Origin: a virus
Taxonomy: Duplodnaviria; Caudoviricetes
Strand: one strand, 5' to 3'
Virus record (IMG/VR): IMGVR_UViG_3300029787_000038
Span: 1 to 59,174 of that record
DNA length: 59,174 nucleotides
In this document: positions 1 through 59,174 of the stretch, in pieces
How the letters are laid out: every line of letters begins with the position of its first letter
Numbering within the stretch: position 1 is the first letter of the stretch
Translations under genes and position numbers: made by a program
Notes under the pieces: model-generated
What the model was told of the DNA's origin: nothing
Seen by the model: only the letters and a program-made list of their open reading frames with translations
Databases searched by the model: none

Positions 1-2
1 TA

Positions 3-881
3 CGTTCTGACAGTGGGGGGACTGTTTCAGGACGTATCTCCATGAATAATCCTAATTTACAGCAAATCCCTGCTAGAGATCCAGAGATCGGACCTATGAT
101 ACGGAGTTTATTCCTACCTGAAAAGGACGAAAGTTGGGCGGCCATAGATTTCTCGCAACAAGAACCACGGCTCTTGGTTCATTATGCTCATGTGTATGGA
201 AAGGCGAAAGGTAGCCCGTTGCCCGCGATTGAAGAATTTGTCACGGCTTATAACGAAAACCCCGATATGGACTTTCACACGATGGTAGCTGAGATGGCTA
301 ACATACCCAGAAAGAAAGCAAAAACGATTAACTTGGGCATGATGTATGGCATGGGCGTCAATAAATTATCGGAACAGTTAGATGTTTCCTTGGACGAAGC
401 CAGAGAATTAATTGGTCAATACCATGCAAGAGTTCCGTTTGTTAAAAAATTAATGAACGGTGTTACCCAGAGGTTAAATGAAAAATCAAGTAGCGGTTCT
501 ATTCGATCCATACGGGGCAGAAAATGTCGATTTGATCTATGGGAGCCCGATACATTTAGTATGAACAAAGCACTACCGTACAAGGAAGCCCTGAAAGAAT
601 ATGGTGAAACCACCAAACTAAAACGAGCATATTCTTACAAAGCCCTTAATCGTTTAATCCAAGCGTCGGCTGCGGATATGACCAAACAATCTATGGTAAA
701 CCTCTATAAAGAAGGCATTATACCGCTTATTCAGATCCACGACGAGATAGCGGTTTCTGTAAAGGATAAAAATACAGCAAAAGATATTGCCAAGATTATG
801 GAAAATGCAGTATTGTTAGAAGTACCTAACAAATGTGATGTTGAAATCGGCCCTAGTTGGGGCGAGGCAAAAGCATTGTAA
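3..881 (+). CDS. polA: Family A DNA polymerase, C-terminal part (5'-truncated; version A)
   Basis: Motifs DFSQQEPR, KTINLGMMYG and QIHDE; frame open from base 3; colinear with 56021-56895 but diverged. Confidence 0.93.
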   Translation, partial: RSDSGGTVSGRISMNNPNLQQIPARDPEIGPMIRSLFLPEKDESWAAIDFSQQEPRLLVHYAHVYGKAKGSPLPAIEEFVTAYNENPDMDFHTMVAEMANIPRKKAKTINLGMMYGMGVNKLSEQLDVSLDEARELIGQYHARVPFVKKLMNGVTQRLNEKSSSGSIRSIRGRKCRFDLWEPDTFSMNKALPYKEALKEYGETTKLKRAYSYKALNRLIQASAADMTKQSMVNLYKEGIIPLIQIHDEIAVSVKDKNTAKDIAKIMENAVLLEVPNKCDVEIGPSWGEAKAL

Positions 882-911
882 GTTAGTTTTTCATATTCGT
901 CTCCCTATAAG

Positions 912-941
912 GCCCCGTTAAATCAAAAACGGGGCTTTTTT
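912..941 (+). terminator. Rho-independent terminator after polA (A)
   Basis: GCCCCGTT...AACGGGGC followed by T-run. Confidence 0.8.
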
Positions 942-942
942 C

Positions 943-971
943 TTGACATATTGTATAAACTCTTATATTTT
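943..971 (+). promoter_or_regulatory. Sigma70-type promoter for RHH gene (A)
   Basis: TTGACA-17-TATTTT, then AGGAG RBS. Confidence 0.7.
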
Positions 972-997
972 CTTAGACAATTATATAGGAGATACGT

Positions 998-1162
998 ATG
1001 GATACAACGAAATGGAAGAGTGTTTTGGTTCCGAAAGAAATTTATGATGAGATAAAAAAGCTTTCCAAGGACGAAGGACGCACCATTAGTGGTCAGTTGC
1101 GTTTAGTTTTTGATTATTATAAGAAAAAACAACCTCTCACGCCTTACAGTACCAAAGATTAA
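998..1162 (+). CDS. Ribbon-helix-helix-like DNA-binding protein (A), 54 aa, not in ORF track
   Basis: MDTTKWKSVLVPKEIYDEIKKLSKDEGRTISGQLR shows an RHH beta-alpha-alpha pattern; homolog of 57008-57190. Confidence 0.7.
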   Translation: MDTTKWKSVLVPKEIYDEIKKLSKDEGRTISGQLRLVFDYYKKKQPLTPYSTKD

Positions 1163-1650
1163 AAGATACCCATTGGTAACTGAGGAGGAGTTTGTTTAAT
1201 GCCACCCTCAAAATCTGCACTAGGAAACTCATTTTTAATGAGCGTTTGTATACCTGACATCAGACCCTGTACTTTGCCTTGAGATTCTTTAGCCGTATCC
1301 TGCATGGCTAACATATTCAGAAAAAACTGTAAGCCTTGTAATGGGCTTTGCGGTTGAACTATTTTTGGACCTGGGTAAAAAGGAGTTGATGTAGTAGGAG
1401 AGTAAGACGGCATTGTTTCAGCAATAGCTTCTTTTTGAGCGTCTAACATACCAATCGCGGGTTGACCCTCAACAGTTGAAGTTGTTTGAATATCTGGCGT
1501 CATTTCCGCACCTGAATCCATCAGTCCACCACCAAAATCCACGGTGTTTGTATTTAGCCCAGATGATATAGGTGCTTGTGCCTGTGTTTGAGCCTGCTCA
1601 AACAAACCACCGATACCGCCAATACCAAATTGATCCAAAGCCATTTTCAT
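1159..1650 (-). CDS. P/Q/G/M-rich low-complexity protein, homolog of 3868-4743
   Basis: Shares KVxGxMSGIxxL(I/V)xxxFP with the 3868-4743 protein. Confidence 0.7.
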   Translation of the reverse strand: MKMALDQFGIGGIGGLFEQAQTQAQAPISSGLNTNTVDFGGGLMDSGAEMTPDIQTTSTVEGQPAIGMLDAQKEAIAETMPSYSPTTSTPFYPGPKIVQPQSPLQGLQFFLNMLAMQDTAKESQGKVQGLMSGIQTLIKNEFPSADFEGGIKQTPPQLPMGIF

Positions 1651-1734
1651 ACGTCTATTATAATAAATTAAAAAAAAATTACAATTGTGAATTTTTTTCT
1701 TGCAATATCTTATAAAATCCTTTATAAGTAAAGT

Positions 1735-1842
1735 GTTTAGTTGAAAATTTTCTCAATTTAGACAACTCCGTAATAAAGACCTTGGTTTTGCCTGTAAAGA
1801 TTCCAAGGTCAACTCAGGGGGACACAACTGTCCCCCTTTTTT
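1735..1842 (+). ncRNA. Candidate anti-Shine-Dalgarno small RNA (A)
   Basis: Promoter TTGCAA-17-TATAAG (1700-1728); hairpin; single-stranded CAACTCCGTA (1763-1772); second hairpin GACCTTGG/CCAAGGTC; terminator AGGGGGACA/TGTCCCCCT-T; no ORF. Confidence 0.55.
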
Positions 1843-2008
1843 AATTCATTACTTCGTGACTGGTGGGTTCTTTTGGATAGTAAACTTCTACATAGGTTCC
1901 GCAGTTGGGACAGGTAAGGTTGGAAACAATTAAAAAATCACTTTCCTCATCATCAAGGTCGTGATCGCCACCCCAGATTAAGTTTGTGCCACAATGCCAA
2001 CAATTCAT
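1841..2008 (-). CDS. Small Zn-ribbon protein (CxxC...CxxC)
   Basis: MNCWHCG...LTCPNCG; alternative start at 2068. Confidence 0.7.
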   Translation of the reverse strand: MNCWHCGTNLIWGGDHDLDDEESDFLIVSNLTCPNCGTYVEVYYPKEPTSHEVMN

Positions 2009-2028
2009 GCTTCTAATATTAAAGACCT

Positions 2029-2199
2029 TTACAAGCCTTCTTCCCTTATTCTTTTTAATCTTTCCCATACTACCTCTTCATTGCAGACGTTGCAACACCT
2101 ACCCTCCTCGGCCAACGGCTCGGGGTTATGACTGTCCATGATGTGTGTGATCTTTTTCCCACAGATACAACAGTAAATAGGTTCTTTTAATCCATCCAT
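2029..2199 (-). CDS. Small Cys-rich phage protein, probably leaderless
   Basis: CCICG...HNPEPL...GRCCNVCN; TGcTATTCT -10 lies 6 nt before the ATG. Confidence 0.65.
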   Translation of the reverse strand: MDGLKEPIYCCICGKKITHIMDSHNPEPLAEEGRCCNVCNEEVVWERLKRIREEGL

Positions 2200-2291
2200 A
2201 ATAAGAGAATAGCAGACTTTATTATAAAAGCAAATATTATTTGACATTATCTTAGTTATTATTATATAATCTTATAAACGGAGAACTACCC

Positions 2292-2446
2292 ATGACAGAT
2301 CAAAAAAAAAAATTGAAGATCAGTTTTCAATCAACAATTTTTTAAAGAAAAACAAAAACTGGTCTAATCAACATCGTGAAAAAAATGGAGGGACTTTAGT
2401 TAAAAAATATAAAAAATACATGAAAAAAAAACAGGAGTTAAAATAA
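2292..2446 (+). pseudogene. Small basic ORF interrupted by a frameshift in an A11 tract
   Basis: Promoter TTGACA..TATAAT, ACGGAG RBS, ATG 2292; one extra A restores a frame ending TAATG at the next start. Confidence 0.45.
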
Positions 2447-2634
2447 TGTTAAAATTTACAAAAGAAGAAACAGAAATGTTGTTAAAATCAGGGGTACAGT
2501 ATGAACGGGCTGTAAATCTGTATGGACCAAATGTTGATGGTCTATCTAAAAAAGAAGTAAAAGGTATTAAATCTGGATTGTTGAAGTTACAAACTTATTG
2601 GGAAAAAAATTTTAATAGGTATTCCGAGGAATAA
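2446..2634 (+). CDS. Hypothetical early protein
   Basis: AGGAG RBS; ORF track. Confidence 0.65.
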   Translation: MLKFTKEETEMLLKSGVQYERAVNLYGPNVDGLSKKEVKGIKSGLLKLQTYWEKNFNRYSEE

Positions 2635-2636
2635 AT

Positions 2637-2894
2637 ATGCAATATTATTTCTACGTTATCCCAGTCATGGGATCTAATGAGGAAAAAAATTGTTTAGTAT
2701 GTAACGATATTTTAATTAATAATGGAACTTGGGGTTACTGCTTTTCTTGTTGGAATAGTAACAAAGTAATGAAAAAAGTAACTTGGGAAAAATATTGGAT
2801 GAATAATGATGCAAGTACAAAAGTTTTTATTAGTAGACCATGTATTACAACAAATACAGGACGACGTATTAAAAGGAGATATGACGGCCATTGA
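2637..2894 (+). CDS. Hypothetical protein with CxxC pairs
   Basis: GAGGA RBS; CLVC and CFSC. Confidence 0.5.
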   Translation: MQYYFYVIPVMGSNEEKNCLVCNDILINNGTWGYCFSCWNSNKVMKKVTWEKYWMNNDASTKVFISRPCITTNTGRRIKRRYDGH

Positions 2895-2956
2895 AACATT
2901 AATTTCAGAGCTGCCCGTCGATACACTCAAAGCTTTTCTTTCGGAGGTAAAACAAA

Positions 2957-3214
2957 ATGAAAAAGATAATTGTTAGTCCCATTGTAAAGGACGCCATGAA
3001 AATTTTTTCGTTAGAAAGAGTATACAACCCTTATTTAAAATGGGCTGACGATCCCGATCCAATGGACTTTGACCATCTTTATGAAAAAGACTTGGTAGCT
3101 GACGCCAAGAAGTTATTAGAAGATAAAGATAAAATTTTTGATCCAGAAGATGTCAGACGATTAAAAGATTTTGTTCGTAAGTGGGATGTTGAAGATCTAC
3201 CTGATCCCGACTAG
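2957..3214 (+). CDS. Hypothetical acidic early protein
   Basis: GGAGGT RBS. Confidence 0.65.
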   Translation: MKKIIVSPIVKDAMKIFSLERVYNPYLKWADDPDPMDFDHLYEKDLVADAKKLLEDKDKIFDPEDVRRLKDFVRKWDVEDLPDPD

Positions 3215-3220
3215 TTGGTT

Positions 3221-3325
3221 TTGTCACAACTGTCACAGGTGTTTTGTAACTTTATATAAATAAAATTATTTAAAAAAGTTTTGTTTTAGCTTGTGACAAG
3301 TGTGACAAGTATTTAGGTGCGACAA
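3221..3325. repeat. Inverted iteron-like array around an AT-rich core (A), origin-like
   Basis: TGTCACA x2, AT core with TTTATATAAA, then TGTGACAAG x2. Confidence 0.55.
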
Positions 3326-3369
3326 TTTGACACATTTATTCGTATGAGATTCTATGATAAAATCTTATA

Positions 3370-3399
3370 TGGTTTAAAAACCAGGTTGCTCTTTGACAT
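3370..3399 (+). promoter_or_regulatory. Hairpin plus boxA-like antitermination site (A)
   Basis: TGGTT/AACCA hairpin then TGCTCTTTGACAT; rrn boxA consensus is TGCTCTTTAACA. Confidence 0.6.
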
Positions 3400-3464
3400 T
3401 GATAGAAACTTTATTCGTAGACAGTAGTCTGTCGGTGATCGAAGATTATTTTAACTAAACATAC

Positions 3465-3573
3465 GGAGTTGAAAATGAAAAAATCATATTGTGGTTTAAT
3501 TTTAGAGCATGGACACACTAGTTACGATTGGAAAAAATACACAGTAAAAGATCGTATCTTCCAATGTGTTAAA
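3465..3573 (+). repeat. 109-bp direct repeat of the window end (59066-59174), 1 mismatch
   Basis: Direct comparison; T3510 vs C59111. Confidence 0.95.
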
Positions 3574-5069: not shown

Positions 5070-5753
5070 ATGGCAAACTTAAATAAGAGTTCAAAGCTTG
5101 ATTTTAAAAAAATACCAAGATCACTAACTTTGAATAATAATCCCAAACCATCTTGGGTAAAAGAGAAACCACCACGCAATCCAAATGAAAAGAGAGGTCG
5201 TGTTAGAGTTCATAAAGATCAGAAGCTAACAAGACGACAAGAGCTTTTTGTTAAGGAGCTAGTATCTAACGACGGCCAGATAACTTTATTGGAAGCTGCT
5301 ATGAAAGCAGGGTATTCCAAATCTTCTGCACATATTAGAGCTTATGAACTTACTAATCCTCATTTGAGCCCTCATGTAGTAGCCGCCATAAAAAGAGAAA
5401 GAGATCTTTTGGATGAAAAGTTTGGAGTAACTTACGCTAGACACATTCGGGACTTACAAAGAATAAGAGATATGGCTTTGGAGAACGGAGCCTACTCAGC
5501 CGCCGTTCAAGCAGAATTTCGTAGAGGTATGGCACAAGGGGACATCTATGTGAACAAGTCTGAGATAAGGCACGGATCAATAGATAGTATGAGTAAAGAA
5601 GAAGTTGTAAAAGCAATCGAAGAAATAAAAAGGTCTTATGGTGAACAAACCATTGATATTACCCCAGACGAGCAAGAAGGAAGCAGGACTATATCAGCAA
5701 CTGAAATCAGCCATCAAGAGGTCGAAGAGGAACTTAGTCCTAACAAGGATTGA
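5070..5753 (+). CDS. terS: Terminase small subunit
   Basis: LTRRQELFVKEL...AAMKAGYS HTH pattern typical of TerS; GGAG RBS before ATG 5070. Confidence 0.75.
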   Translation: MANLNKSSKLDFKKIPRSLTLNNNPKPSWVKEKPPRNPNEKRGRVRVHKDQKLTRRQELFVKELVSNDGQITLLEAAMKAGYSKSSAHIRAYELTNPHLSPHVVAAIKRERDLLDEKFGVTYARHIRDLQRIRDMALENGAYSAAVQAEFRRGMAQGDIYVNKSEIRHGSIDSMSKEEVVKAIEEIKRSYGEQTIDITPDEQEGSRTISATEISHQEVEEELSPNKD

Positions 5754-6075
5754 GAATTGGGCAGGCCAAGGTATTCCTGATCTTCTTATTTGTGATGAAA
5801 AGGGTTTGTTTCATTTTATCGAACTAAAGTTTGTAAAGGCTAACGCAGTTAATCTTAGCCCGCATCAGGTAGCTTGGTTGACAAGACATAAGCATAGTAG
5901 CTCTTGGGTGCTTATAAAGAAACAGAACAATCCAACTACTACGGCCGAGTTATATTTATATAAAGCGGATCAGGCTATTGATCTTAAAACAAATGGATTA
6001 AAGACCGAGCCAATAGGAGGTTGGAAAGCACCTTTTGAATGGGAAAAATTGTGGGACTTGATTTATCCCATATAA
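5638..6075 (+). CDS. PD-(D/E)XK nuclease (VRR-NUC/Holliday-junction resolvase-like)
   Basis: RIEN...GIPDL...FIELK...LSPHQVAW. Confidence 0.8.
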   Translation: MVNKPLILPQTSKKEAGLYQQLKSAIKRSKRNLVLTRIENWAGQGIPDLLICDEKGLFHFIELKFVKANAVNLSPHQVAWLTRHKHSSSWVLIKKQNNPTTTAELYLYKADQAIDLKTNGLKTEPIGGWKAPFEWEKLWDLIYPI

Positions 6076-6109
6076 TTCTATATCATAAACGAATCACAAT
6101 TACATGGAG
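6058..6109 (+). promoter_or_regulatory. Early promoter with ATCCCATA box and ACATGGAG RBS
   Basis: TTGATT-17-TATCAT. Confidence 0.6.
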
Positions 6110-6117
6110 GTTAAGTG

Positions 6118-6336
6118 ATGAGAGGTAATCCAGATGATTTATCAAACCAACTTCTCGCAAAGATTAAGAAGTGGTTAAAGCATGAAGTTAAGCAATACAA
6201 AAGAATCTGTAAGCGTATTGATGAAGGTGAAGAACCTATAAATGTATGTGAAAATCCAGAGATATTCTTCTTTAGAAGTGAATGCTCAGAAAATTTGCTT
6301 GATCAAATAAAAGAATGGGAAAAGGAGCAGGAGTGA
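6118..6336 (+). CDS. Hypothetical early protein
   Basis: RBS and ORF track. Confidence 0.7.
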   Translation: MRGNPDDLSNQLLAKIKKWLKHEVKQYKRICKRIDEGEEPINVCENPEIFFFRSECSENLLDQIKEWEKEQE

Positions 6337-6527
6337 TGTCCGAGGAAGAATTACAAAAACTTATCTATAAAACTATTAAAGATTGGGTAGATGAAGAGGC
6401 AGAACTAAACGATCACAATGAGGGTACTAGAGAAGATAACTTTGAAAATTCCTGCAAACAGTTAAGCAGATGGGCTACAGAGATTAAAGACGACTATAAA
6501 AAATATGTAGATAGGCCAATGGAGTAG
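6336..6527 (+). CDS. Hypothetical early protein
   Basis: TGATG coupling; AGGAG RBS. Confidence 0.65.
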   Translation: MSEEELQKLIYKTIKDWVDEEAELNDHNEGTREDNFENSCKQLSRWATEIKDDYKKYVDRPME

Positions 6528-6539
6528 GGAGGAGGAGTA

Positions 6540-6713
6540 ATGAAAACGTATGAAATAACTGTAGTGTGTACAACAAAACGAGAAATTGTTGTAAAAGCTA
6601 ATAGTAAGAAAGGGGCTAAAAAACTCGCCATTAAAGAGGCTAATGCGCTTGTTGGGAGTTATTGTGAAAGCTACGTAGAAAATGTTGAAATATTGAAAGA
6701 GGGCTGTAACTAA
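6540..6713 (+). CDS. Hypothetical protein (57 aa), not in track
   Basis: GGAGGAG RBS; MKTYEITVVCTTKREIVVKANS. Confidence 0.65.
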   Translation: MKTYEITVVCTTKREIVVKANSKKGAKKLAIKEANALVGSYCESYVENVEILKEGCN

Positions 6714-6886
6714 TGAGAGATAAAGATAGAGAGGCTGAACAAGACTATTGGGATATTCACCCAGAAGAAGAAAAAAAACATATAGAAAAAGCGAAAGCAG
6801 GAGGTGAACCAATGCTTATTCTGAATGAAAAAGTAGTCTGGGTTAACAAAGATTATTCTAAATTAAAAAAAGAGGGAGGTGATTGA
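6713..6886 (+). CDS. Hypothetical protein (57 aa), not in track
   Basis: TAATG coupling; MRDKDREAEQDYW. Confidence 0.55.
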   Translation: MRDKDREAEQDYWDIHPEEEKKHIEKAKAGGEPMLILNEKVVWVNKDYSKLKKEGGD

Positions 6887-6979
6887 TTGTTTATTTTAAC
6901 TTGGATTGGTAAGTTATTGTATGGTGATAAATATGATGAACTTATGAAGAAAACCAATAAAACAAGGAGGAAAAGATAA
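6887..6979 (+). CDS. Small basic peptide (30 aa), TTG start
   Basis: GGAGGT RBS; MFILTWIGKLLYG...RRKR. Confidence 0.45.
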   Translation: MFILTWIGKLLYGDKYDELMKKTNKTRRKR

Positions 6980-6987
6980 AATTACTA

Positions 6988-7047
6988 GGGGGCTTGACTA
7001 GCCCCCTTTTTAATTTATTATATATGGGATAAGTAACATACATGGAG
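6988..7047 (+). promoter_or_regulatory. Terminator hairpin with embedded -35, TATGGGAT box and ACATGGAG RBS
   Basis: GGGGGCT-TGACT-AGCCCCC-T5; TTGACT-16-TATTAT. Confidence 0.65.
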
Positions 7048-7055
7048 ATTCGCTT

Positions 7056-7322
7056 ATGACAATTAAAGAATTAATGAAAGAATTTAAAAATTATCCATCT
7101 GACACTAGGTTAGATTTTATAATGGTAGATAGGAATTGGGAAGATGTTCCCTATGATCCAGAAATAAATTATTTTGGCATTGTTGGAAGTGGAGAACAGA
7201 CGGATGATTGTGAAAAAGGATATATCGAAGTAGCCTTTAAAGTTCTCCCAGAAAGCAGAGAAACTTTAAAGGAGCTATTAATTACTAATGATGAATACTT
7301 TGAGGGAGAAAGTGATGACTAA
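7056..7322 (+). CDS. Hypothetical early protein
   Basis: RBS; MTIKELMKEF start. Confidence 0.7.
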   Translation: MTIKELMKEFKNYPSDTRLDFIMVDRNWEDVPYDPEINYFGIVGSGEQTDDCEKGYIEVAFKVLPESRETLKELLITNDEYFEGESDD

Positions 7323-7763: not shown

Positions 7764-7829
7764 AAGGCGGGCTATTTACAACCCGCCTTTTTTAATGCTA
7801 TATATATGGGATAAATTATATACATGGAG
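7764..7829 (+). promoter_or_regulatory. Terminator hairpin with embedded -35, TATGGGAT box and ACATGGAG RBS
   Basis: AAGGCGGG-ctatttacaa-CCCGCCTT-T; TTTACA in the loop. Confidence 0.6.
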
Positions 7830-7838
7830 AATCACATA

Positions 7839-8651
7839 ATGGAAAAACAAATAGAAAATATGACCGATCAAGAATTAGTTGATTATTTATTCGATAAAGT
7901 GGACGTAAAAAAAACTATTTATAAAATGTTAACTGAAAATACAGGAACTCATTTTTTGGATTCAGGCGGGGCTAGTAATAGGAATTGGCAACGTAACCAA
8001 ATAAAAACAATTAAAGACTTTCAAGATGAACCTGAGGCTACTTTAAGTTTTGATGTTATCGGAGATGATATATATTTAGATCCAACTGTATCCGTATTTC
8101 ATAAATTATCTAAAGTATTAGATGAATGTAAAATATGTAAAGATTTTAACGCTATGAAAGTTAATAATTGGGATAGCCAAAACTATATGGGCGTGAGTAA
8201 AGAGGGAGAAAACTTTTTAAACTCTTACGGGTTTACTACTCCAGATAATCCCGATTGGAATACATACAATTGGGATAACTGTTTTAGTCAAGTTGTGCAG
8301 GGGACTAATTTAATTAGTGATAACAACGAGAATTATGTTCTTATTCAGATACATCAGGGCGCGGATGTAAGAGGGGGATATACGGACGCTAAACTATTTA
8401 TTATCTCTCATGGCTATGATTGTTTACATTATTCTGTACATGATGATAGTTGTATGTTCAGCGTTATTGATCCCGCAATTGATGTACTAACGAAAGATAT
8501 GTTTAAGGTCGCGCATGAAAACGAATTAATAATTGATTATCGTTTTAATTATTTTACTTGTAAAGACGGGATAGAAATTGACCAAGAATATATTAAAAAG
8601 TTTGCAACGTTATGCGATTATAAAACTATTAGCGGTTATATATCTGAATAA
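7839..8651 (+). CDS. Phage hypothetical protein
   Basis: ENTGTHFLDSGG and QIHQGADVRGGYT motifs; start placed after the ACATGGAG RBS. Confidence 0.8.
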   Translation: MEKQIENMTDQELVDYLFDKVDVKKTIYKMLTENTGTHFLDSGGASNRNWQRNQIKTIKDFQDEPEATLSFDVIGDDIYLDPTVSVFHKLSKVLDECKICKDFNAMKVNNWDSQNYMGVSKEGENFLNSYGFTTPDNPDWNTYNWDNCFSQVVQGTNLISDNNENYVLIQIHQGADVRGGYTDAKLFIISHGYDCLHYSVHDDSCMFSVIDPAIDVLTKDMFKVAHENELIIDYRFNYFTCKDGIEIDQEYIKKFATLCDYKTISGYISE

Positions 8652-8740
8652 AAAAGCTTGCAATATAAGAGAAATAATATATTTTAATAGGGCGGGGTAG
8701 TTTTTCCCGCCTTATTTTATTAATTAACATGGAGTAAAAA

Positions 8741-9724
8741 ATGAATAAAATAGTAGACAATTTAATAAATAACGCAATCGCAACCGCAGAAAATACTCAG
8801 GACGTAGTATTCCCGCCATTGGAAAAAGTTAATTTTTCGGCCGTAAAAACCCCGATTTATTTACGTAATGTTAGCGGGGATTATGTACCCGTACCAATGG
8901 AAACGGGGCAAGCAATTATAAGAACCGATAATAGTACCCCGCTCGGCGTAATGAAAAAAAGATACGCAATCGCGGATAATTCTGAATTAGATAATGCGGT
9001 GCGCGAGGGATTAGAAGATTCACTTCCTAAAGAGGCCTTACAAAATATTAAGTTAATTGAAAAAACCGCCGATAATGGTTCAATATGTCGTTGGGGTTAT
9101 TCTTTTGACGGCCTCGGCCGAGATATCCGCCAATTAACGGGTAGTAAAACACAATTAAATTTTCGTGTTATGATCATTAATAGTTTTGGAGGCCAAACCG
9201 CTATTAGATTACAAGCGGGCGCAGAAGATTTATGGTGTACTAATGGTTGCACATCTGCAGAATTAATGGCCACCGCTTTCGGTCATACCGCTAGTTTTAA
9301 CCCCGCCCAAGTAAAACCATTTATTGAAAAGCAAGTAGAATACTACGAGTTAAAGGTTCAGACTTGGCAAGCATGGGCTAACAAAGAAATTAATTTTGAT
9401 CAGGCTTTTAAAGTTTTGCAAGATAATTACCCCGCCTCGGAAAGTGAAATTAAAAGAGCAGAAAAAAAAGGATTTACCGCGGGCGAGGCAAAATCCAGAA
9501 AAACCGCGCAGATGATGGAGCAATTTGAAAAGGAAGCGGAGCAACGCGGGTCAACTGTTTGGTCTCTTTATTCAGCGTTAACTTTCTATAGCTCCCATTC
9601 GGAGGGTTCATTCACTGTTAAAAATTCTGCTAATCGGGATAATGTAGAAACAACTTTGATACAAAGAGAGCGCGAAGTTAATAACGTGACCGCGTCTGAA
9701 AGTTTTTTAGAATTGGCGGGATAA
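8741..9724 (+). CDS. DUF932/DUF945-like phage/plasmid protein
   Basis: INSFGG...WCTNG and GSTVWSLYSALT patterns. Confidence 0.7.
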   Translation: MNKIVDNLINNAIATAENTQDVVFPPLEKVNFSAVKTPIYLRNVSGDYVPVPMETGQAIIRTDNSTPLGVMKKRYAIADNSELDNAVREGLEDSLPKEALQNIKLIEKTADNGSICRWGYSFDGLGRDIRQLTGSKTQLNFRVMIINSFGGQTAIRLQAGAEDLWCTNGCTSAELMATAFGHTASFNPAQVKPFIEKQVEYYELKVQTWQAWANKEINFDQAFKVLQDNYPASESEIKRAEKKGFTAGEAKSRKTAQMMEQFEKEAEQRGSTVWSLYSALTFYSSHSEGSFTVKNSANRDNVETTLIQREREVNNVTASESFLELAG

Positions 9725-20755: not shown

Positions 20756-21664
20756 ATGGCTATATCTCGCGCACAATTAGCGAAAGAGCTTGAACCCGGC
20801 CTTAATGCCTTGTTTGGGCTTGAGTATGATCGTTATGAAAACGAACACGCTGAAATCTTTGAAGAGGAGACATCAGACAGAGCTTTTGAAGAAGAAGTAA
20901 TGTTAGGTGGTTTCTCGACTGCACCTGTTAAGTCAGAGGGTGGATCAATTAGTTTTGACGATGCACAAGAAACCTACACAGCTAGGTATACGCATGAAAC
21001 TATTGCTTTAGCATTTTCTATAACTGAGGAGGCTATTGAAGATAATCTTTATGATAGACTAGCTTCACGTTATACAAAGGCTCTAGCACGTTCTATGGCT
21101 CAGACAAAGCAGATCAAAGCAGCAGCAATACTTAATAATGCTTTTACTGCAGGTTCAAGTGCAATAGGGGACGGAGTATCTCTTTGTTCTGCTTCTCACC
21201 CATCTTTATCAGGAACTCAAACCAATATCTTATCTGTAGCAGCGGATCTCAATGAGACTTCTCTTGAGCAGATGTTGATAGATATTGCAGGATTTACTGA
21301 TGAGAGAGGGCTTAAAATTGCAGTTAGAGGAACTAAGTTAATTATTCCTAAAGAATTGCAGTTTATTGCAGAAAGAGTAATGAACTCAAACCTCCGTTCA
21401 GGAACAGCGGATAACGACATTAACGCCAACAGAAGCATGGGTATGCTTCCTGAGGGTGCAGTCGTTAACCATTTCTTAACGGATACGGATGCCTTTTTTA
21501 TCAAAACTGACGCTCCAAACGGCTTTAAGATGTTCAATAGAGCAGCTATAAAGACAGCTATGGAAGGTGATTTTGATACAGGAAACATGAGATTTAAAGC
21601 TCGTGAAAGATATTCTTTCGGTGTTTCCGACTGGCGTTGTGTTTTCGGTACACCGGGAGCTTAA
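20756..21664 (+). CDS. Major capsid protein
   Basis: MAISRAQLAKELEPGLNALFG...KARERYSFGVSDWR; strong RBS; followed by a terminator. Confidence 0.9.
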   Translation: MAISRAQLAKELEPGLNALFGLEYDRYENEHAEIFEEETSDRAFEEEVMLGGFSTAPVKSEGGSISFDDAQETYTARYTHETIALAFSITEEAIEDNLYDRLASRYTKALARSMAQTKQIKAAAILNNAFTAGSSAIGDGVSLCSASHPSLSGTQTNILSVAADLNETSLEQMLIDIAGFTDERGLKIAVRGTKLIIPKELQFIAERVMNSNLRSGTADNDINANRSMGMLPEGAVVNHFLTDTDAFFIKTDAPNGFKMFNRAAIKTAMEGDFDTGNMRFKARERYSFGVSDWRCVFGTPGA

Positions 21665-21717: not shown

Positions 21718-21789
21718 TTGTATAGTAGTCATATTAACTTCTGACAATCGCATGGTGCGATTGACATAGCCAAGACAGGAGATGATATT

Positions 21790-22506
21790 ATGGCTGTACA
21801 TTTTACCGGACCAATACTTTTCGCAGGAAAAGACGGTCAAAGAAAGTGGTTTGAAAACCTCCCAATAGACAAAAACCCTGATTATCTAGTTTACATGGAT
21901 GATTTTACAGGGGTCGCTTTAGACAATACAAACGACTGGACAGTTGTGAAAGATTCCAGTGCCTCTGCAGCCATTGCTGCTGATGTTGTAAACGGAGCGG
22001 TTACATTAAGCTCTCAAGCAACAACAGATAACGATGGTGCTTCTATCCAAGGTAATGAAATCTTCGCAGTATCTTCAGGAAGAGATATTTGGTTTGAAAC
22101 CAAACTTACCCCAACAGATGCTGAGGGGGATGCAATGGATATTTGTATAGGTTTAACTGTAAACTTTGCAACTAATCCAGAAGCTATGCTTACCGCAGCA
22201 GACCGTGTTGTTTTTCAAGTAGATGATGGTGATAGCAATATTGATTGTGTGACTGAAAAAGACGGCACTGCAACAACAACAGATTCTGGGGTTGATATTG
22301 CAAGTGGTACTGCAGTAACACTTGGTTTTCATATCAAAGGGACAGGAAGTGTAGAATTTTTTGTAAATAGAAACTTAGTAGCTACACATACTGCTAACAT
22401 TCCAGACGATGAAAACTTAGCTCTTGGAGCAATGGAACTTTCAGGTTCTGCAACAGGAACTAAATCAATGAACATTGATTATATGTTTGCTGCACAGAAC
22501 AGATAA
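21790..22506 (+). CDS. Putative structural beta-sandwich protein
   Basis: Beta-rich T/D/G composition; late operon. Confidence 0.65.
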   Translation: MAVHFTGPILFAGKDGQRKWFENLPIDKNPDYLVYMDDFTGVALDNTNDWTVVKDSSASAAIAADVVNGAVTLSSQATTDNDGASIQGNEIFAVSSGRDIWFETKLTPTDAEGDAMDICIGLTVNFATNPEAMLTAADRVVFQVDDGDSNIDCVTEKDGTATTTDSGVDIASGTAVTLGFHIKGTGSVEFFVNRNLVATHTANIPDDENLALGAMELSGSATGTKSMNIDYMFAAQNR

Positions 22507-28436: not shown

Positions 28437-28729
28437 TGTTTACTGATTCGTTAAGCATGGGTAAGAACTTTTCAGTGCAAATACAGACTACTGATAACAG
28501 AGGGCAAACCCCTGAGGAGGTAGCTGAAAGATGTGTCAATAAAATAATTGGTGTATCAGAAAATGCCCACCCTGTCATAAGGGAGCAAGCTCATGCTTAT
28601 CGTAAAGAGATGGAGAAAATAATTGCAATTTATATGAGACAGGCTATTAAAAGTGATAGAACCACCGTGTATAATGCAATAAAAGATTCAGGCAACCCCA
28701 AACTAGCAGAATATATAAGGAGAATGTAA
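28436..28729 (+). CDS. Tail-region hypothetical protein
   Basis: TAATG coupling. Confidence 0.7.
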   Translation: MFTDSLSMGKNFSVQIQTTDNRGQTPEEVAERCVNKIIGVSENAHPVIREQAHAYRKEMEKIIAIYMRQAIKSDRTTVYNAIKDSGNPKLAEYIRRM

Positions 28730-29166
28730 TGGCTTTTACGGGAAATTTTTTATGTACCTCTTTTAAAACAGAACTTTTGAAAGGTGTTCATAACTTTACA
28801 GCAACAACAGGAAATACTTTTAATGTGGCCTTATATGATAATAGTGCCTCATTTACAGCAGCTACCACAGCTTACACCTCTAGTAACGAAATAAGTGGTA
28901 CTAATTACTCAGCTAAGGGTCAGGCATTAAATCCTGTAACACCTACGGCAAGTGGTACAACGGCATTAGTAGATTTTGCTGATGAGACATTTAGCAATGT
29001 TACTATCAGTAGTGTAAGAGGTGCTTTAATATTTAATGAGACTGCAACAGGAGATCCTTCCGTTGCTGTTTTAGATTTTGGTGCAGATAAAGCAGCCAGT
29101 AGTGGTGACTTTACGATTGTGTTCCCTACGGCTGATGCAAGTAATGCAATTATAAGGATTGCTTAA
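28729..29166 (+). CDS. Putative tail protein
   Basis: CTSFKTELL...VLDFG...AIIRIA. Confidence 0.65.
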   Translation: MAFTGNFLCTSFKTELLKGVHNFTATTGNTFNVALYDNSASFTAATTAYTSSNEISGTNYSAKGQALNPVTPTASGTTALVDFADETFSNVTISSVRGALIFNETATGDPSVAVLDFGADKAASSGDFTIVFPTADASNAIIRIA

Positions 29167-55018: not shown

Positions 55019-56895
55019 CAATGTTTGCACCCAAGAGCGAATGGGTGCCCCCTTATGAACTACCTGATCTCAGTCACTGTAAGCAAATTGCCATTGACGT
55101 AGAAACCAGAGATCCGAACATCAAATCTAAAGGACCGGGTTGGCCTACAGGAGACGGTATGATTGTAGGATATGCCATTGCCACCGAATCATGGTCACAT
55201 TATATCCCTGTTAAACACGTCGGCGGGGGTAATTTAGATGAAAGAATCGTCAATAGGTGGTTAAAAAAGGTTTTTGAGAGCCCTGCAGATAAAATTATGC
55301 ACAATGCACAGTATGATGCAGGGTGGATTAGACAAGAGGGCTTTACTTTAAACGGTAGAATCATTGATACAATGGTCATTGCCTCGTTATTGGACGAAAA
55401 CCGCTTTAGTTATAGCCTAAATGCTCTTTCTTACGACTATTTAAGCAAAACCAAGTCCGAAAAAGAATTAAATGAAGCTGCATCTGCCTTTGGTGTCGAT
55501 CCAAAAGCTGAAATGTGGAAGTTACCTGCCATGTTTGTAGGTCCTTACGCTACCGACGACGCAAAACTGACCTTGGACCTTTGGAATTACTTTTCTGTCG
55601 AGATTAACAAGCAAGGATTGTCAAAAATAGCTGATTTAGAGTTAAATTTACTGCCCTGTTTGATTGATATGACATGGAGAGGTGTTAGAGTGGACCTTGA
55701 TAAGGCCGAATCACTTAGAAACACCCTCCTCAAGCGTGAAAATGAAACTTTACACAAGATAAAAAAGCTTACGGGGCTTGAAATAGAGGTTTGGGCGGCT
55801 CAATCTATAGCCAAAGCCTTTGACAAACTTAATATTAAGTACGAAAGAACTGAAAAAGGTGTGCCCTCCTTTACCAAGTCTTTCCTGAAAGATCATCCAC
55901 ACGAGCTTTCTAAATTAATTGTGGACGTTAGGAACCTTAACAAGACCAGTGGTACGTTTATCAACACAATTATGAAGCATTGCCACAAAGACGGACGCAT
56001 TCATAGTCATATTAACCAGATACGCTCCGACCAAGGGGGCACGGTATCGGGTAGAATATCCATGAACAATCCTAATTTACAGCAGATCCCCGCTAGAGAT
56101 CCTGAATTAGGTCCTATGATTCGTTCTTTGTTCCTACCTGAAGAGGGAGAGCAGTGGGGTTCTATTGATTTCTCGCAACAGGAGCCACGGATCTTGGTTC
56201 ACTACGCTCATGTCTTTGGTGTATCCAGAAAAGTACCGCTTAAAGGCGCAAAAGAGTTTGTCGAAGCTTATAATGACGACCCGACTACCGATTTTCATAC
56301 GATGGTTGCAGAAATGGCACAGATACCGCGTAAGTCCGCCAAGACCATCAACCTCGGCATGATGTACGGCATGGGTGTCAACAAGTTATCCGAGCAATTA
56401 GGCATAGAAGTAGAGGAAGCCAAGTCCATTATTCGTCAGTACCACGAGCGAGTACCCTTTGTGAAGGGCTTGATGAACGGGGTAATGAACCATTTAAATG
56501 AACGAGATAGCTCAGGCTCCGTAAGATCACTACTCGGCCGAAAATGCCGCTTTGATTTATGGGAACCTGACCGCTTTGAAATGAACAAGGCTATGCCTTT
56601 TGAGCAAGCTGTACAGGAATATGGTAAAACCACCAAGCTCAAGCGGGCTTATACCTACAAAGCCCTAAACAGGCTTATTCAAGCGTCGGCCGCGGACATG
56701 ACAAAGAAAGCTATGGTCGATATTTACCAATCAGGTCGCGTCCCTCTTATACAAATACACGACGAGATAGCGATTTCTGTCAGAGATAAACCAGATGCAG
56801 AAAGTATTTCCCGAATCATGGAAAATGCAGTACCTTTAGAGGTGCCTAACAAATGTGACGTGGAGGTGGGTCGCAGTTGGGGAACCGCTCAATGA
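55003..56895 (+). CDS. polA: Family A DNA polymerase with 3'-5' exonuclease (version B)
   Basis: Exo DVET, HNAQYD, YATDD; polymerase motifs A, B, C. Confidence 0.95.
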   Translation: MSLQLTMFAPKSEWVPPYELPDLSHCKQIAIDVETRDPNIKSKGPGWPTGDGMIVGYAIATESWSHYIPVKHVGGGNLDERIVNRWLKKVFESPADKIMHNAQYDAGWIRQEGFTLNGRIIDTMVIASLLDENRFSYSLNALSYDYLSKTKSEKELNEAASAFGVDPKAEMWKLPAMFVGPYATDDAKLTLDLWNYFSVEINKQGLSKIADLELNLLPCLIDMTWRGVRVDLDKAESLRNTLLKRENETLHKIKKLTGLEIEVWAAQSIAKAFDKLNIKYERTEKGVPSFTKSFLKDHPHELSKLIVDVRNLNKTSGTFINTIMKHCHKDGRIHSHINQIRSDQGGTVSGRISMNNPNLQQIPARDPELGPMIRSLFLPEEGEQWGSIDFSQQEPRILVHYAHVFGVSRKVPLKGAKEFVEAYNDDPTTDFHTMVAEMAQIPRKSAKTINLGMMYGMGVNKLSEQLGIEVEEAKSIIRQYHERVPFVKGLMNGVMNHLNERDSSGSVRSLLGRKCRFDLWEPDRFEMNKAMPFEQAVQEYGKTTKLKRAYTYKALNRLIQASAADMTKKAMVDIYQSGRVPLIQIHDEIAISVRDKPDAESISRIMENAVPLEVPNKCDVEVGRSWGTAQ

Positions 56896-56916
56896 CCTGT
56901 ATACCATCTCAAACTT

Positions 56917-56955
56917 GTGCCCTCCTTCCTCCCTTTCGAGGAGGGCACCCTTTTT
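56917..56955 (+). terminator. Terminator after polA (B)
   Basis: GTGCCCTCCT...AGGAGGGCAC then T-run. Confidence 0.7.
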
Positions 56956-57007
56956 CCCTTGAATAATCCAATAAAATCTTATATATTCTCATTAAAGGAG
57001 ATGCAAA

Positions 57008-57190
57008 ATGGATACAACTAAATGGAAAAGTGTGCTTGTTCCTATCGAAGTGTACAGAGAATTGAAGGCCCTGTCCCGCGAACAGGGGCGCACGATGGGG
57101 GGACAGTTAAAGATCATGTATCAAGTCTATGAAGCCTATCAAAATAAAGAATTAACCTTTTCTACGGAACCACCTGAAAAAAGAGTTTGA
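57008..57190 (+). CDS. Ribbon-helix-helix-like DNA-binding protein (B)
   Basis: KSVLVPIEVYRELKALSREQGRTMGGQL; promoter TTGAAT-17-TATATT. Confidence 0.7.
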   Translation: MDTTKWKSVLVPIEVYRELKALSREQGRTMGGQLKIMYQVYEAYQNKELTFSTEPPEKRV

Positions 57191-57221
57191 CAGATCCCAT
57201 AAAATCTTTTACGGTTAAGTC

Positions 57222-57292
57222 ACTCCATGTGATAAAGAGTCGTTGTTAATCCTATGATTTGTTCAAACCAACCTGACAACGGCTCTTTTTTT
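57222..57292 (+). ncRNA. Candidate anti-Shine-Dalgarno small RNA (B)
   Basis: TTGACA-17-TACGGT; 5' ACTCCATGT; stem AAAGAGTCGTTGTTA/TGACAACGGCTCTTT plus T-run. Confidence 0.6.
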
Positions 57293-57297
57293 ATGTC

Positions 57298-57391
57298 TTG
57301 ACAGCTATCCCATAAAAGCGCATACTAATACTGTTACAAGTTCAAGTTAGGTTTAAGCTCAGTTGCCTAATGGTAGGCTTGGGCTTGTAAC
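57298..57391 (+). promoter_or_regulatory. Promoter and structured 5' leader
   Basis: TTGACA-17-CATACT; stem GTTACAAGTTCAAG/CTTGGGCTTGTAAC. Confidence 0.55.
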
Positions 57392-57409
57392 TTTAGTATG
57401 GAGATACAA

Positions 57410-57559
57410 ATGAATAAAAAAAAATCATTAGCCGAGCAGTTTGGCATTCACAGGTTTTACAAACCCAACAAAGAACACACTAGTCGTTGGGTTTGGAGAA
57501 AACTACCCGCTCGTCTATTTAAAAAAAAAGAGAGGAAAAAGGATGACAAAAAAACTTAG
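57410..57559 (+). CDS. Small basic protein (49 aa), not in track
   Basis: ATGGAG RBS. Confidence 0.55.
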   Translation: MNKKKSLAEQFGIHRFYKPNKEHTSRWVWRKLPARLFKKKERKKDDKKT

Positions 57560-57728
57560 TCCTGCAGAAGAGTATGAACTAAATTTTTTAAGAAAACAGG
57601 TAGATCACTACGAAACCAAGGTCTTTGAATTAAAAAGACATAAAGACATAGCTAGGGATCACGAGAGAGCAAGAGAAGAACTTAAAACTTATGTATTGAA
57701 ATTAAGAGGATTAGGGAGGGAAGTATGA
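57543..57728 (+). CDS. Hypothetical coiled protein
   Basis: GAGGA RBS before ATG 57543. Confidence 0.65.
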   Translation: MTKKLSPAEEYELNFLRKQVDHYETKVFELKRHKDIARDHERAREELKTYVLKLRGLGREV

Positions 57729-57877
57729 CAGAGAGTGAAAAGAAAGAAGAGTTCTTTAAACACTTAAATAACGTACTGGCGGATAAGTTACTGAAGCCCG
57801 CTATTATATTGGAATACATTAATCAATATAAAATTAGCATGGGAGAGAGTAATGACCAATCAAATAATGATGTATAG
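57725..57877 (+). CDS. Hypothetical protein (50 aa)
   Basis: ATGA coupling; GGAGG RBS. Confidence 0.5.
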   Translation: MTESEKKEEFFKHLNNVLADKLLKPAIILEYINQYKISMGESNDQSNNDV

Positions 57878-58046
57878 CCTTCTGACCGTCATGCACTTCA
57901 CCACGCCCGAAGAGTGTCAAATGTGGAGCGATAAGATCTATGGCGAGGGCTATAAGTGTTTTATATCTTACAAACAAAAAGAGTGGTATATTAAAGAACC
58001 GTTGCCCCGACCAGATATTATTGTTAATATGGGAAAAGAGGAGTAG
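57852..58046 (+). CDS. Hypothetical protein
   Basis: ORF track; GGAG RBS. Confidence 0.55.
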   Translation: MTNQIMMYSLLTVMHFTTPEECQMWSDKIYGEGYKCFISYKQKEWYIKEPLPRPDIIVNMGKEE

Positions 58047-58050
58047 TCAG

Positions 58051-58290
58051 ATTTTAAAAGCAAACAAACTTGATGATGCACTTATTGGAATTGGCAGAAG
58101 ATGTTCCCAAGAGGACGTTCTTGTCTATGATTTTAATAAAGCCGTTAAGATCCTTGTAGATCGTGACCAAATGACAGAGGAAGAAGCCGTTGAGTATTTA
58201 GAGTTTAATACCGTAGGTGCATGGGTCGGCGAAGAAACACCCGTGTTTGTCTATCCAATGACAATGGAGGAAATAGATGAGATGCAATAG
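58051..58290 (+). CDS. Small acidic phage protein, apparent ATT start
   Basis: GAGGAG-7nt-ATT TTA AAA GCA; LDDALIG...EEAVEYLEFNTVGAWVGEETP. Confidence 0.6.
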   Translation: MLKANKLDDALIGIGRRCSQEDVLVYDFNKAVKILVDRDQMTEEEAVEYLEFNTVGAWVGEETPVFVYPMTMEEIDEMQ

Positions 58291-58477
58291 ATGCGGCTGC
58301 GAAGCCAAAACCGTTTATGTTCATGGGCACGAACAATGCTCACAGTGTCATTCCGTTGTAGAGGACTGTTGTCAGGGGATCACGGTCCAAGAAGTTTCCA
58401 AAGATAATTATTACGTCGAAAAGCAATCCTGTAAATACAATGAGGTGGACCCTCATTTTGTTGTTGGTAAAGAGTGA
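58277..58477 (+). CDS. Small Zn-finger protein
   Basis: CNRC...VHGHEQCSQC...DCCQG. Confidence 0.7.
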   Translation: MRCNRCGCEAKTVYVHGHEQCSQCHSVVEDCCQGITVQEVSKDNYYVEKQSCKYNEVDPHFVVGKE

Positions 58478-58631
58478 TAACTCTTTTTTATGTCAGCGTC
58501 GTCATTGCTATACTTTTCATCCTAGTCGGGATTGTATGGATAGCTATACATAAGTGACATTTTTATCACAGTTAAAATTTTTTTATCTAAAGGGGTTTTA
58601 ATGTATGGGATTTTATGCGATAATAAATATA

Positions 58632-58664
58632 GTGATTCGTCATGGATCACCTGCTCTTTGACAT
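58632..58664 (+). promoter_or_regulatory. Hairpin plus boxA-like antitermination site (B)
   Basis: GTGATTC/GGATCAC hairpin then TGCTCTTTGACAT. Confidence 0.6.
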
Positions 58665-58767
58665 CGTCAATCTTTTTGGTTCCGTAGGGGAAACCCGATT
58701 ATCGGTTAGCACCAACCTAAGACTTAGTAATGGTGCTAAGTATCAACCCCAAACAAAGGAGGTCTTT

Positions 58768-59022
58768 ATGGCTTATCCAATTTGGGAGGGTGATCTTGAT
58801 TTTTTTATGAATCAAGAGCTTAACGAGCGTATTAGCGAAGCACTCGCTAATAACTCTGACCCTCAAAATTCTGATCGCGACATTCGTCGTGCAGAAGCTC
58901 TCAAATTTCGCAAAGAAATTTGGGATAACAACCACCACAAATATTCCCGTCATCATATCAAAATGATGAAAAAAGGTTTATTTGGTGGACCTTTTACCTA
59001 CGAGATGTTTGCTCGTGGGTAA
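58768..59022 (+). CDS. Hypothetical early protein (84 aa)
   Basis: AAGGAGGT RBS before ATG 58768. Confidence 0.7.
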   Translation: MAYPIWEGDLDFFMNQELNERISEALANNSDPQNSDRDIRRAEALKFRKEIWDNNHHKYSRHHIKMMKKGLFGGPFTYEMFARG

Positions 59023-59031
59023 CAACCAAAC

Positions 59032-59054
59032 GGGGCAGGCAGTGCCTGCCCCTT
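59032..59054 (+). terminator. Stem-loop/terminator
   Basis: GGGGCAGGCA-G-TGCCTGCCCC-TT. Confidence 0.6.
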
Positions 59055-59075
59055 AATTTAAACATGGAGTTGAAA

Positions 59076-59174
59076 ATGAAAAAATCATATTGTGGTTTAA
59101 TTTTAGAGCACGGACACACTAGTTACGATTGGAAAAAATACACAGTAAAAGATCGTATCTTCCAATGTGTTAAA
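59076..59174 (+). CDS. Partial second copy of the 3475-3831 gene
   Basis: Near-identical sequence; truncated by the window end. Confidence 0.85.
   Translation, partial: MKKSYCGLILEHGHTSYDWKKYTVKDRIFQCVK

Follow-up and report, generated by a model that had tools for sequence, protein, structure and literature searches.

Directly behind a small regulator gene of an uncultured marine phage lies an element whose seed is antisense to an extended Shine-Dalgarno (SD) motif shared by a set of the phage's own genes, and seed and motif covary across related genomes. The stretch of DNA analyzed, hereafter the window, is a complete IMG/VR virus record (IMGVR_UViG_3300029787_000038; 59,174 bp, G+C 39%). 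We call the SD-containing motif the tag and the preceding regulator the RHH gene. On sequence and comparative grounds we put at roughly three in four the probability that the element encodes a trans-acting RNA of ∼70 nucleotides (nt), whose seed would pair over the SD core and the private flanking bases of a gene set and would thereby block initiation.

The locus is anchored by the RHH-type gene (MDTTKWKSV..., 60 amino acids (aa)), whose own ribosome site, AAAGGAGA, is without the tag. Its protein has no Pfam or PHROG match, and RHH is the label it received in an earlier note on this DNA. That note had read a promoter TTGACA-17-TACGGT behind the gene, and its coordinates hold, with a weak -10 hexamer: TTGACA (57187-57192) overlaps the RHH stop codon, TACGGT occupies 57210-57215, and the 17-nt spacer contains a ATCCCATA box (57194-57201). 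When seven sequences are aligned, the -35 box, the ATCCCATA box and the TA of the -10 hexamer are all invariant. The seed ACTCCATGT starts 7 nt past this hexamer. We also recover what had been described downstream, namely a seed near a predicted +1 at about 57222, a 15-bp stem with a U-run (T7 in the DNA), and no open reading frame (ORF): on the + strand, none of at least 30 aa is found between 57191 and 57397. A 73-nt RNA starting at 57222 has a folding energy of -19.4 kcal/mol (z = -4.1), and 0 of 200 shuffled sequences fold equally well. With a predicted promoter, no ORF, and a Rho-independent terminator with U-tail, the element has the Hfq-type architecture of a small RNA (sRNA) gene. A small minus-strand ORF behind the inverted tag was considered and rejected; it is unconserved, has 12 codons in the window with its ATG 21 nt from GGAG, and is without ATG in class C, one of the seed classes described below.

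The tag ACATGGAG occurs 9 times on the two strands of the window, compared with 1.63 copies expected (the maximum in 100 shuffles is 5). Five + strand copies are found 5-9 nt before start codons, and these are the ribosome-binding sites (RBSs) of the five units (6102, 7040, 7822, 8727, 59062) that the earlier note had listed as complementary to the seed. The other four copies comprise the seed itself (57223-57230, minus strand) and three copies in coding sequence (19669 on the minus strand, 49640, and 55672). A 9-mer version, ACATGGAGT, is restricted to 8727 and 59062. The 49 other GGAG-type ribosome sites listed for the window have different contexts, again as first read.

Located between a terS-like gene and terL, the tagged genes form small insulated units, and their annotation is limited to one DUF932 domain and one PHROG of unknown function; the last of them, gene X at 59076, is truncated by the end of the record. 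Four of the five tagged sites lie directly 3' of a terminator hairpin, and two of the five follow a terminator without an intervening promoter. The 6102 site is found downstream of a promoter TTGATT-17-TATCAT (6058-6086), and the 7040 site is preceded by a terminator (6987-7007) and a promoter (6994-7021). In the regions 6987-7021 and 7764-7800, each terminator hairpin shares bases with the -35 box of the promoter that follows; the 6987-7007 hairpin contains TTGACT in its loop and stem. This overlap produces tightly insulated one-gene units, each starting with a tagged ribosome site.

Using the RHH protein as query we found 384 IMG/VR relatives, of which 80 loci were fetched. In 12 of the 80, CTCCATGT is found no more than 400 nt past the RHH stop, and in a further one (L007) at about 580 nt; RHH identity is at least 82% in all of these. 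An alignment of seven elements has a mean column identity of 64%, and the 9-mer is its only invariant contiguous block from the -35 box to the T-run. It is positioned at the predicted RNA 5' end in the window and in L002-L009. In L010-L014 it forms part of an unrelated terminator's loop; there the stem seen in the window is exchanged for unrelated stems and the seed is kept. The seed is thus conserved while its structural context changes. L007 carries an inserted gene between the RHH stop and the promoter-plus-RNA unit (1240-1822) in a contig that is otherwise L008-like, and this arrangement shows at the sequence level that the putative RNA unit moves together with its own promoter. Copies of ACATGGAG before start codons are also found in L004, L005, L008 (twice), L010, and L013.

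Two sRNA classes are present in the one record, class B at 57187-57292 and class A at 1700-1842, and the record, judged by its sequence, is a wrap-around chimera joining two diverged versions of one genome segment. Bases 15-838 repeat the 3' end of polA at 72% identity, bases 998-1162 contain another RHH gene, and bases 3456-3573 match 59059-59174, the start region of gene X, at 97.5% identity. Because polA end, RHH and gene X are duplicated, we regard module A (1-3455) and module B (about 55600-59058) as alternative versions of the segment; the true genome is probably about 55.6 kb in size and would contain a single module version only. Module A adjoins a full polA gene in L087, L094, L111, L124, and L130 (87-99% identity per aligned block), and the class-A element is present in these same five contigs. 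A scan with a 15-mer containing the class-A seed returned 54 loci, comprising 5 true relatives and 49 chance matches.

The class-A element starts with a box-type promoter (TTGCAA-17-TATAAG, 1700-1728), followed by hairpin 1, an unpaired seed CAACUCCGUA (1763-1772), hairpin 2, a terminator hairpin (1817-1836), and T6 (1837-1842); in the minimum free energy (MFE) fold, 8/8 seed positions are unpaired. Three orthologous genes change their tag with the RNA class. Gene X has TACGGAGTTG in module A and ACATGGAGTTG in module B, the two copies being 97.5% identical over 118 nt; the MLEKDLIT gene swaps between A-type and B-type tags (coding sequence 93-94% identical); and the 7839 gene has TACGGAG in an A-type contig (L137) versus ACATGGAG in the window (coding sequence 91% identical). 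In the A-type contigs L087, L094, and L111, the seed is ACTCCGTA, ACATGGAG is wholly absent, and TACGGAG is found before starts instead (4 sites in L111, 2 in L087, and 2 in L094).

A search with the second RHH protein as anchor added more distant clades (537 relatives, 80 loci kept). Altogether we distinguish at least seven seed classes (B, A, A2, C/C2, D, F, and G), each accompanied in its contigs by a ribosome-site tag of its own, and the further classes keep the architecture of box promoter, seed, and terminator (Table 1). The distance from the predicted +1 to the seed is 0-3 nt in classes B, C, and F. Among 91 non-redundant loci, the own tag is found in 16/219 RBS windows for class F, 7/59 for A, 10/53 for A2, 6/44 for G, 4/45 for D, 6/93 for B, and 11-12/203 for C, compared with 0-3 non-own tags per class group, so that the class-by-tag matrix is strongly diagonal. 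A matrix of representatives scored for at least 8 contiguous pairs has 4, 4, 3, 3, 1, 4, and 3 on its diagonal and mostly zeros elsewhere.

Covariation is also seen in a test that is independent of the class definitions, in which each of 79 loci was searched for 8-mers with an SD core that match between the 160 nt behind the RHH stop and its own RBS windows. Matched antisense 8-mers give 50 RBS-window matches versus 19.6 ± 4.7 for permuted loci, and 0 of 5000 permutations reach 50; the controls amount to 21 (same-sense), 8 (reversed), and 10 (complement-only). Seed/RBS covariation in homologs had been named beforehand as the check to be made, and the classes, the three ortholog tag swaps and the permutation test agree in finding it. 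A ribosome site in the structural region of the window, AAGGAGAATGTAATG (28719-28731), is identical to the class-C tag GGAGAATGT of distant relatives; in a class-B genome this match is probably a coincidence.

Table 1. Positions of the features discussed, followed by the seed and tag pairs of further classes
Feature	Position	Strand	Basis or remarks
Class-A small RNA gene, module A	1700..1842	+	fold z = -4.8
Class-A tag TACGGAGTTG of gene X	3462..3477	+	ATG 3475
Tagged site ACATGGAG	6102..6120	+	GTG 6115 (5 nt) or ATG 6118 (8 nt), 73-aa gene
Tagged site ACATGGAG	7040..7058	+	ATG 7056 (8 nt), 88-aa gene
Tagged site ACATGGAG	7822..7841	+	ATG 7839 (9 nt), 270-aa gene, phrog_11344
Tagged site ACATGGAGT	8727..8743	+	ATG 8741 (6 nt), 327-aa DUF932 gene, directly after terminator 8686-8716
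RHH-type small regulator gene, locus anchor	57008..57190	+	ORF listing
Predicted sRNA promoter TTGACA-17-TACGGT	57187..57215	+	sequence reading
Seed ACTCCATGT (RNA ACUCCAUGU), antisense to tag ACAUGGAG(U); predicted RNA 5' end	57222..57230	+	
Intrinsic terminator, 15-pair hairpin (57234-57288) and T7 (57286-57292); predicted RNA 3' end	57234..57292	+	fold
Tagged site ACATGGAGT	59062..59078	+	ATG 59076 (6 nt), gene X, directly after terminator 59032-59052
ATCCCATA box copies	6065, 7023(-), 7805(-), 18013, 57194, 57307, 58604(-)		most related loci carry the box too
Seed CUCCGUAG, tag CTACGGAG			L178, L188
Seed ACAUUCUCC, tag GGAGAATG (also written GGAGAAUG)			L038, L072 and others
Seed CAUUCUCCAA, tag UUGGAGA			
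Seed UCUCCGUG, tag ACGGAGA			L155-L158
Seed (UA)CCUCAUAA, tag TTATGAGG, extended UUAUGAGG(UA)			L162, L164, L165, L172
Seed UCCCGUAG, tag (C)UACGGGA / TACGGGA			L198, L207, L211

In the mechanism that we propose, an RNA of ∼70 nt would be transcribed from the promoter at 57187-57215 and end at the terminator (57286-57292). Its 5' seed ACUCCAUGU would pair with the tag ACAUGGAG(U) of at least five mRNAs of the phage itself (6102, 7040, 7822, 8727, 59062), mask their SD sequence, exclude the 30S subunit, and so lower translation of the tagged set as a group; mRNA stability would probably be lowered too. The four or five tag bases beside GGAG would provide specificity over other GGAG sites of the phage. 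The earlier note had gone as far as one sRNA that switches off a whole class of early genes: the comparative data uphold the pairing with the tagged set, and the transcript, the repressive sign and the early timing are what we infer.

The predicted sRNA promoter shares the ATCCCATA box with target promoters. Given this common promoter type, the likely purpose of the RNA would be the shut-off or dampening of insulated early or accessory units, and the RNA would probably be made together with its targets. The box, which occurs 7 times in the window compared with 1.9 copies expected, is placed either in the spacer of TTGAC-type promoters or inverted directly after the -10 hexamer. It is kept in distant relatives alongside an invariant RHH N-terminus, MDTTKWKSVLVP, and sequence suggests that the RHH protein likely uses it as its operator. 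Within 57298-57410 there is a second box promoter (TTGACA-17-CATACT), followed by a long hairpin-forming leader (about 57333-57393) that precedes a partial tag, TATGGAG, and ATG 57410. This leader is kept in L002, L003, and L005, and is replaced by other sequence in L004, L008, and L009.

Several observations weigh against the proposed RNA or against its proposed action. TACGGT matches TATAAT at 3/6 positions only, making it a weak -10 hexamer, and a consensus promoter scan of the window did not list the 57187-57215 promoter. MFE folds leave the seed partly paired in some classes: the window RNA, given a start 3 nt earlier, has 5/9 seed positions unpaired, and the L157 RNA has 2/8. Of 20 sequencing runs listed, 5 are recorded as RNA; the four RNA runs examined yielded six read-sized contigs, none of them on 57120-57339, a result that is uninformative and carries no weight against transcription. 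A duplex-energy scan of the whole + strand was not selective: GC-rich coding windows outranked the 6102 site, which came 8th. That the targets are 'early' is read from their sigma-70-like promoters and their position. The promoter type common to RNA and targets suits dampening better than a clean temporal switch, and co-production of the two would agree with thresholding or dampening no less than with a late switch-off. Among the relatives, classes A and A2 cross-match, 42 of the 91 non-redundant loci fall into no seed class by the patterns used, and two or more 8-mer matches are found in only 14 of the 79 loci of the permutation test; because of the last two figures, either the seed/tag system would not be universal or the RNA would be located elsewhere in those genomes.

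Other explanations of the same locus have to be considered. The element may be the 3' untranslated region of the RHH mRNA, or an RNA processed from it, which still pairs with the tagged sites. In most classes it is found directly 3' of the RHH stop, the -10 hexamer of the window is weak, and in class C the predicted promoter lies within the RHH coding end, with no terminator between RHH and the element. Every class examined, however, has a -35 box, a ATCCCATA box, and a -10-like hexamer at a fixed distance before the seed; promoter and RNA stay together in L007 although an inserted gene separates both from RHH, and module A has a minus-strand gene between its RHH gene and the RNA. We therefore judge an RHH-derived RNA unlikely. 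The pairing could also be real with an effect other than repression, such as protection or activation (shielding from a RegB-like nuclease, opening of a leader) or titration by leaders, as the sign of the effect is not fixed by sequence and RNA and targets have a common promoter type. That the duplex covers the SD core in all classes points instead to an initiation block, given what is known of antisense RNAs (for c4 of P1/P7, as described in passages of PMC12197685), and renders a non-repressive effect decidedly unlikely.

On duplex DNA, a site is equivalent to its reverse complement, and the region is dense in operator-like boxes, so the 8-9 bp motif might be a site for a phage protein that is used in either orientation, with the copy behind RHH acting as an operator. 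Such a site would not be expected to keep the register that we observe: the tag is fixed relative to start codons (5-9 nt) and not to promoters, two of the five copies being promoterless after terminators, and it always includes the SD core. The single inverted copy is always on the transcribed strand, between promoter and terminator, in a 5'-terminal, loop or inter-hairpin position, and the DNA-contacting RHH N-terminus is constant while the tags differ. A protein-binding site is thus very improbable. To find a lone 8-mer complement among about 3 kb of intergenic sequence is not very improbable, and a hairpin with a T-run is a normal terminator, but that the element is a mere RHH terminator with a chance complementarity to RBSs is barely credible in view of the 9-mer kept across changed contexts, the seven covarying classes, the permutation test, and the ortholog tag swaps.

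More tentatively, the seed and tag of the proposed silencing RNA may be a private translational address code that diversifies through conflict between co-infecting relatives; we regard this as possible rather than probable. Any relative that shares the code of a phage would have its tagged genes silenced by the RNA of that phage, in what would be the equivalent, among lytic phages, of P1/P7 heteroimmunity; escape would occur by exchange of the RHH-sRNA module and by gene-by-gene conversion of tags. Conflict of this kind would explain at least seven codes among genes that are 91-97% identical, and two codes in one record.

Nearly all genes of the window are on the + strand. Primase, helicase, and polA (49.6-56.9 kb) are followed by the small RHH gene, by small genes and by the terS-like gene (5070-5753), after which come four small insulated units, terL (10253), portal, and structural genes. 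The polA protein shares 55% sequence identity with phages 023Pt_psg01 and DSL-LC04 and 52% with Pelagibacter phage HTVC023P, these being HTVC023P-type and other marine podovirus-like phages. In the phage collection, neither a DNA search with 56900-57420 nor a protein search with RHH returned a match, and no cultured relative with the locus was found. Gene X, used as an anchor for related loci, retrieved nothing. Scanning the genome collection for RHH gave 4 contigs of metagenome-assembled genomes (MAGs) with inconsistent taxa and no information on host or prophage. One contig, L215 (an 822-kb alphaproteobacterial MAG contig, 6001-7000), has an MDTTKWKS-type RHH N-terminus fused to a protein of ∼340 aa. 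We rejected it as a relative; it is an unrelated fused chromosomal gene (61% G+C) without phage context in 12 kb.

The c4 RNA of P1/P7, encoded in the immI region, uses short exposed segments complementary to a phage RBS region to block translation, and c4 RNA and target differ together between P1 and P7, giving heteroimmunity (passages of PMC12197685). The element described here resembles c4, as portrayed there, in being antisense to the RBS region and in changing together with its target. Its complementarity is likewise exposed, with 8-10 nt exact to the tagged sites and a seed that is 5'-terminal, in a loop, or between hairpins. The target of c4 is one operon (ant/icd) in those passages (PMC12197685), compared with at least five tagged transcription units here. 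Lysogeny is not indicated for our phage: no integrase family was found for the two minus-strand proteins scanned, the other genes not having been scanned for one. The element is not a member of the Rfam C4 family. At gathering thresholds, the whole window returned only Mu-gpT-DE, and at E ≤ 10 the regions 57100-57420 and 1650-1900 gave only chance-level matches to unrelated families and no C4. The Mu-gpT-DE RNA (21739-21792; 50.6 bits, gathering score 49) is located directly 3' of the major head protein gene (20756-21664) and directly before the next gene.

Extended SD motifs are known from other phages. The T4 endoribonuclease RegB inactivates many early messages through GGAG, with the extended context GGAGRAYARAA providing selectivity (PMC3014915, in part). 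RegB is a protein nuclease aided by ribosomal protein S1 in that account, whereas the tag reader proposed here would be an RNA, and the analogy is functional only. The start-associated sequence (SAS) of Cluster K mycobacteriophages is an extended SD-containing motif found in one orientation 3-7 bp before a subset of non-structural gene starts; several genomes have a single copy on the complementary strand, and its unknown reader is described as 'either RNA or protein' (passages of PMC3203893). SAS is a different 13-bp motif, GGGATAGGAGCCC, in a different phage group, and the passages of PMC3203893 contain no matching antisense RNA. Unlike SAS as described there, the inverted copy here is part of an RNA-gene-like unit that covaries with the tag. 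Our tags (ACATGGAG, TACGGAG, and others) do not belong to the SAS consensus GGGATAGGAGCCC.

Sponge RNAs of CsrA/RsmA have multiple same-sense GGA motifs that mimic ribosome sites. This candidate was rejected: the sense is wrong, as the element contains the complement CUCC once and no GGA repeats, and the same-sense control amounts to 21 versus 19.6. Cuckoo (CcsR-type) RNAs act on mRNA ribosome sites. In Alphaproteobacteria, they present an anti-SD-like C/U-rich motif, CCUCCUCCC, in hairpin loops (PMC4615179, in part). They are host-encoded, with one generic motif repeated in 2-4 loops, and are not known to have a private tag or class switching. A full-text search of open-access papers and bioRxiv found no description of a system such as the one proposed here.

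Post-transcriptional control has hardly been explored in lytic and uncultured phages, and in a 2025 review of phage sRNAs it is c4 that exemplifies the blocking of a phage ribosome site by a phage RNA (passages of PMC12197685). If our reading is correct, one small RNA would address an entire set of separately transcribed genes through a tag in their SD region, and RNA and tag would evolve together in many lineages of marine phages. Phage genes could then be assigned to a regulatory class by a rule readable from sequence, and the unexplained 'start-associated' motifs of other phages would gain a candidate reader. The seed classes would form a natural set of orthogonal RNA/ribosome-site pairs, and the hypothesis can be tested by reporter matrices without the host.
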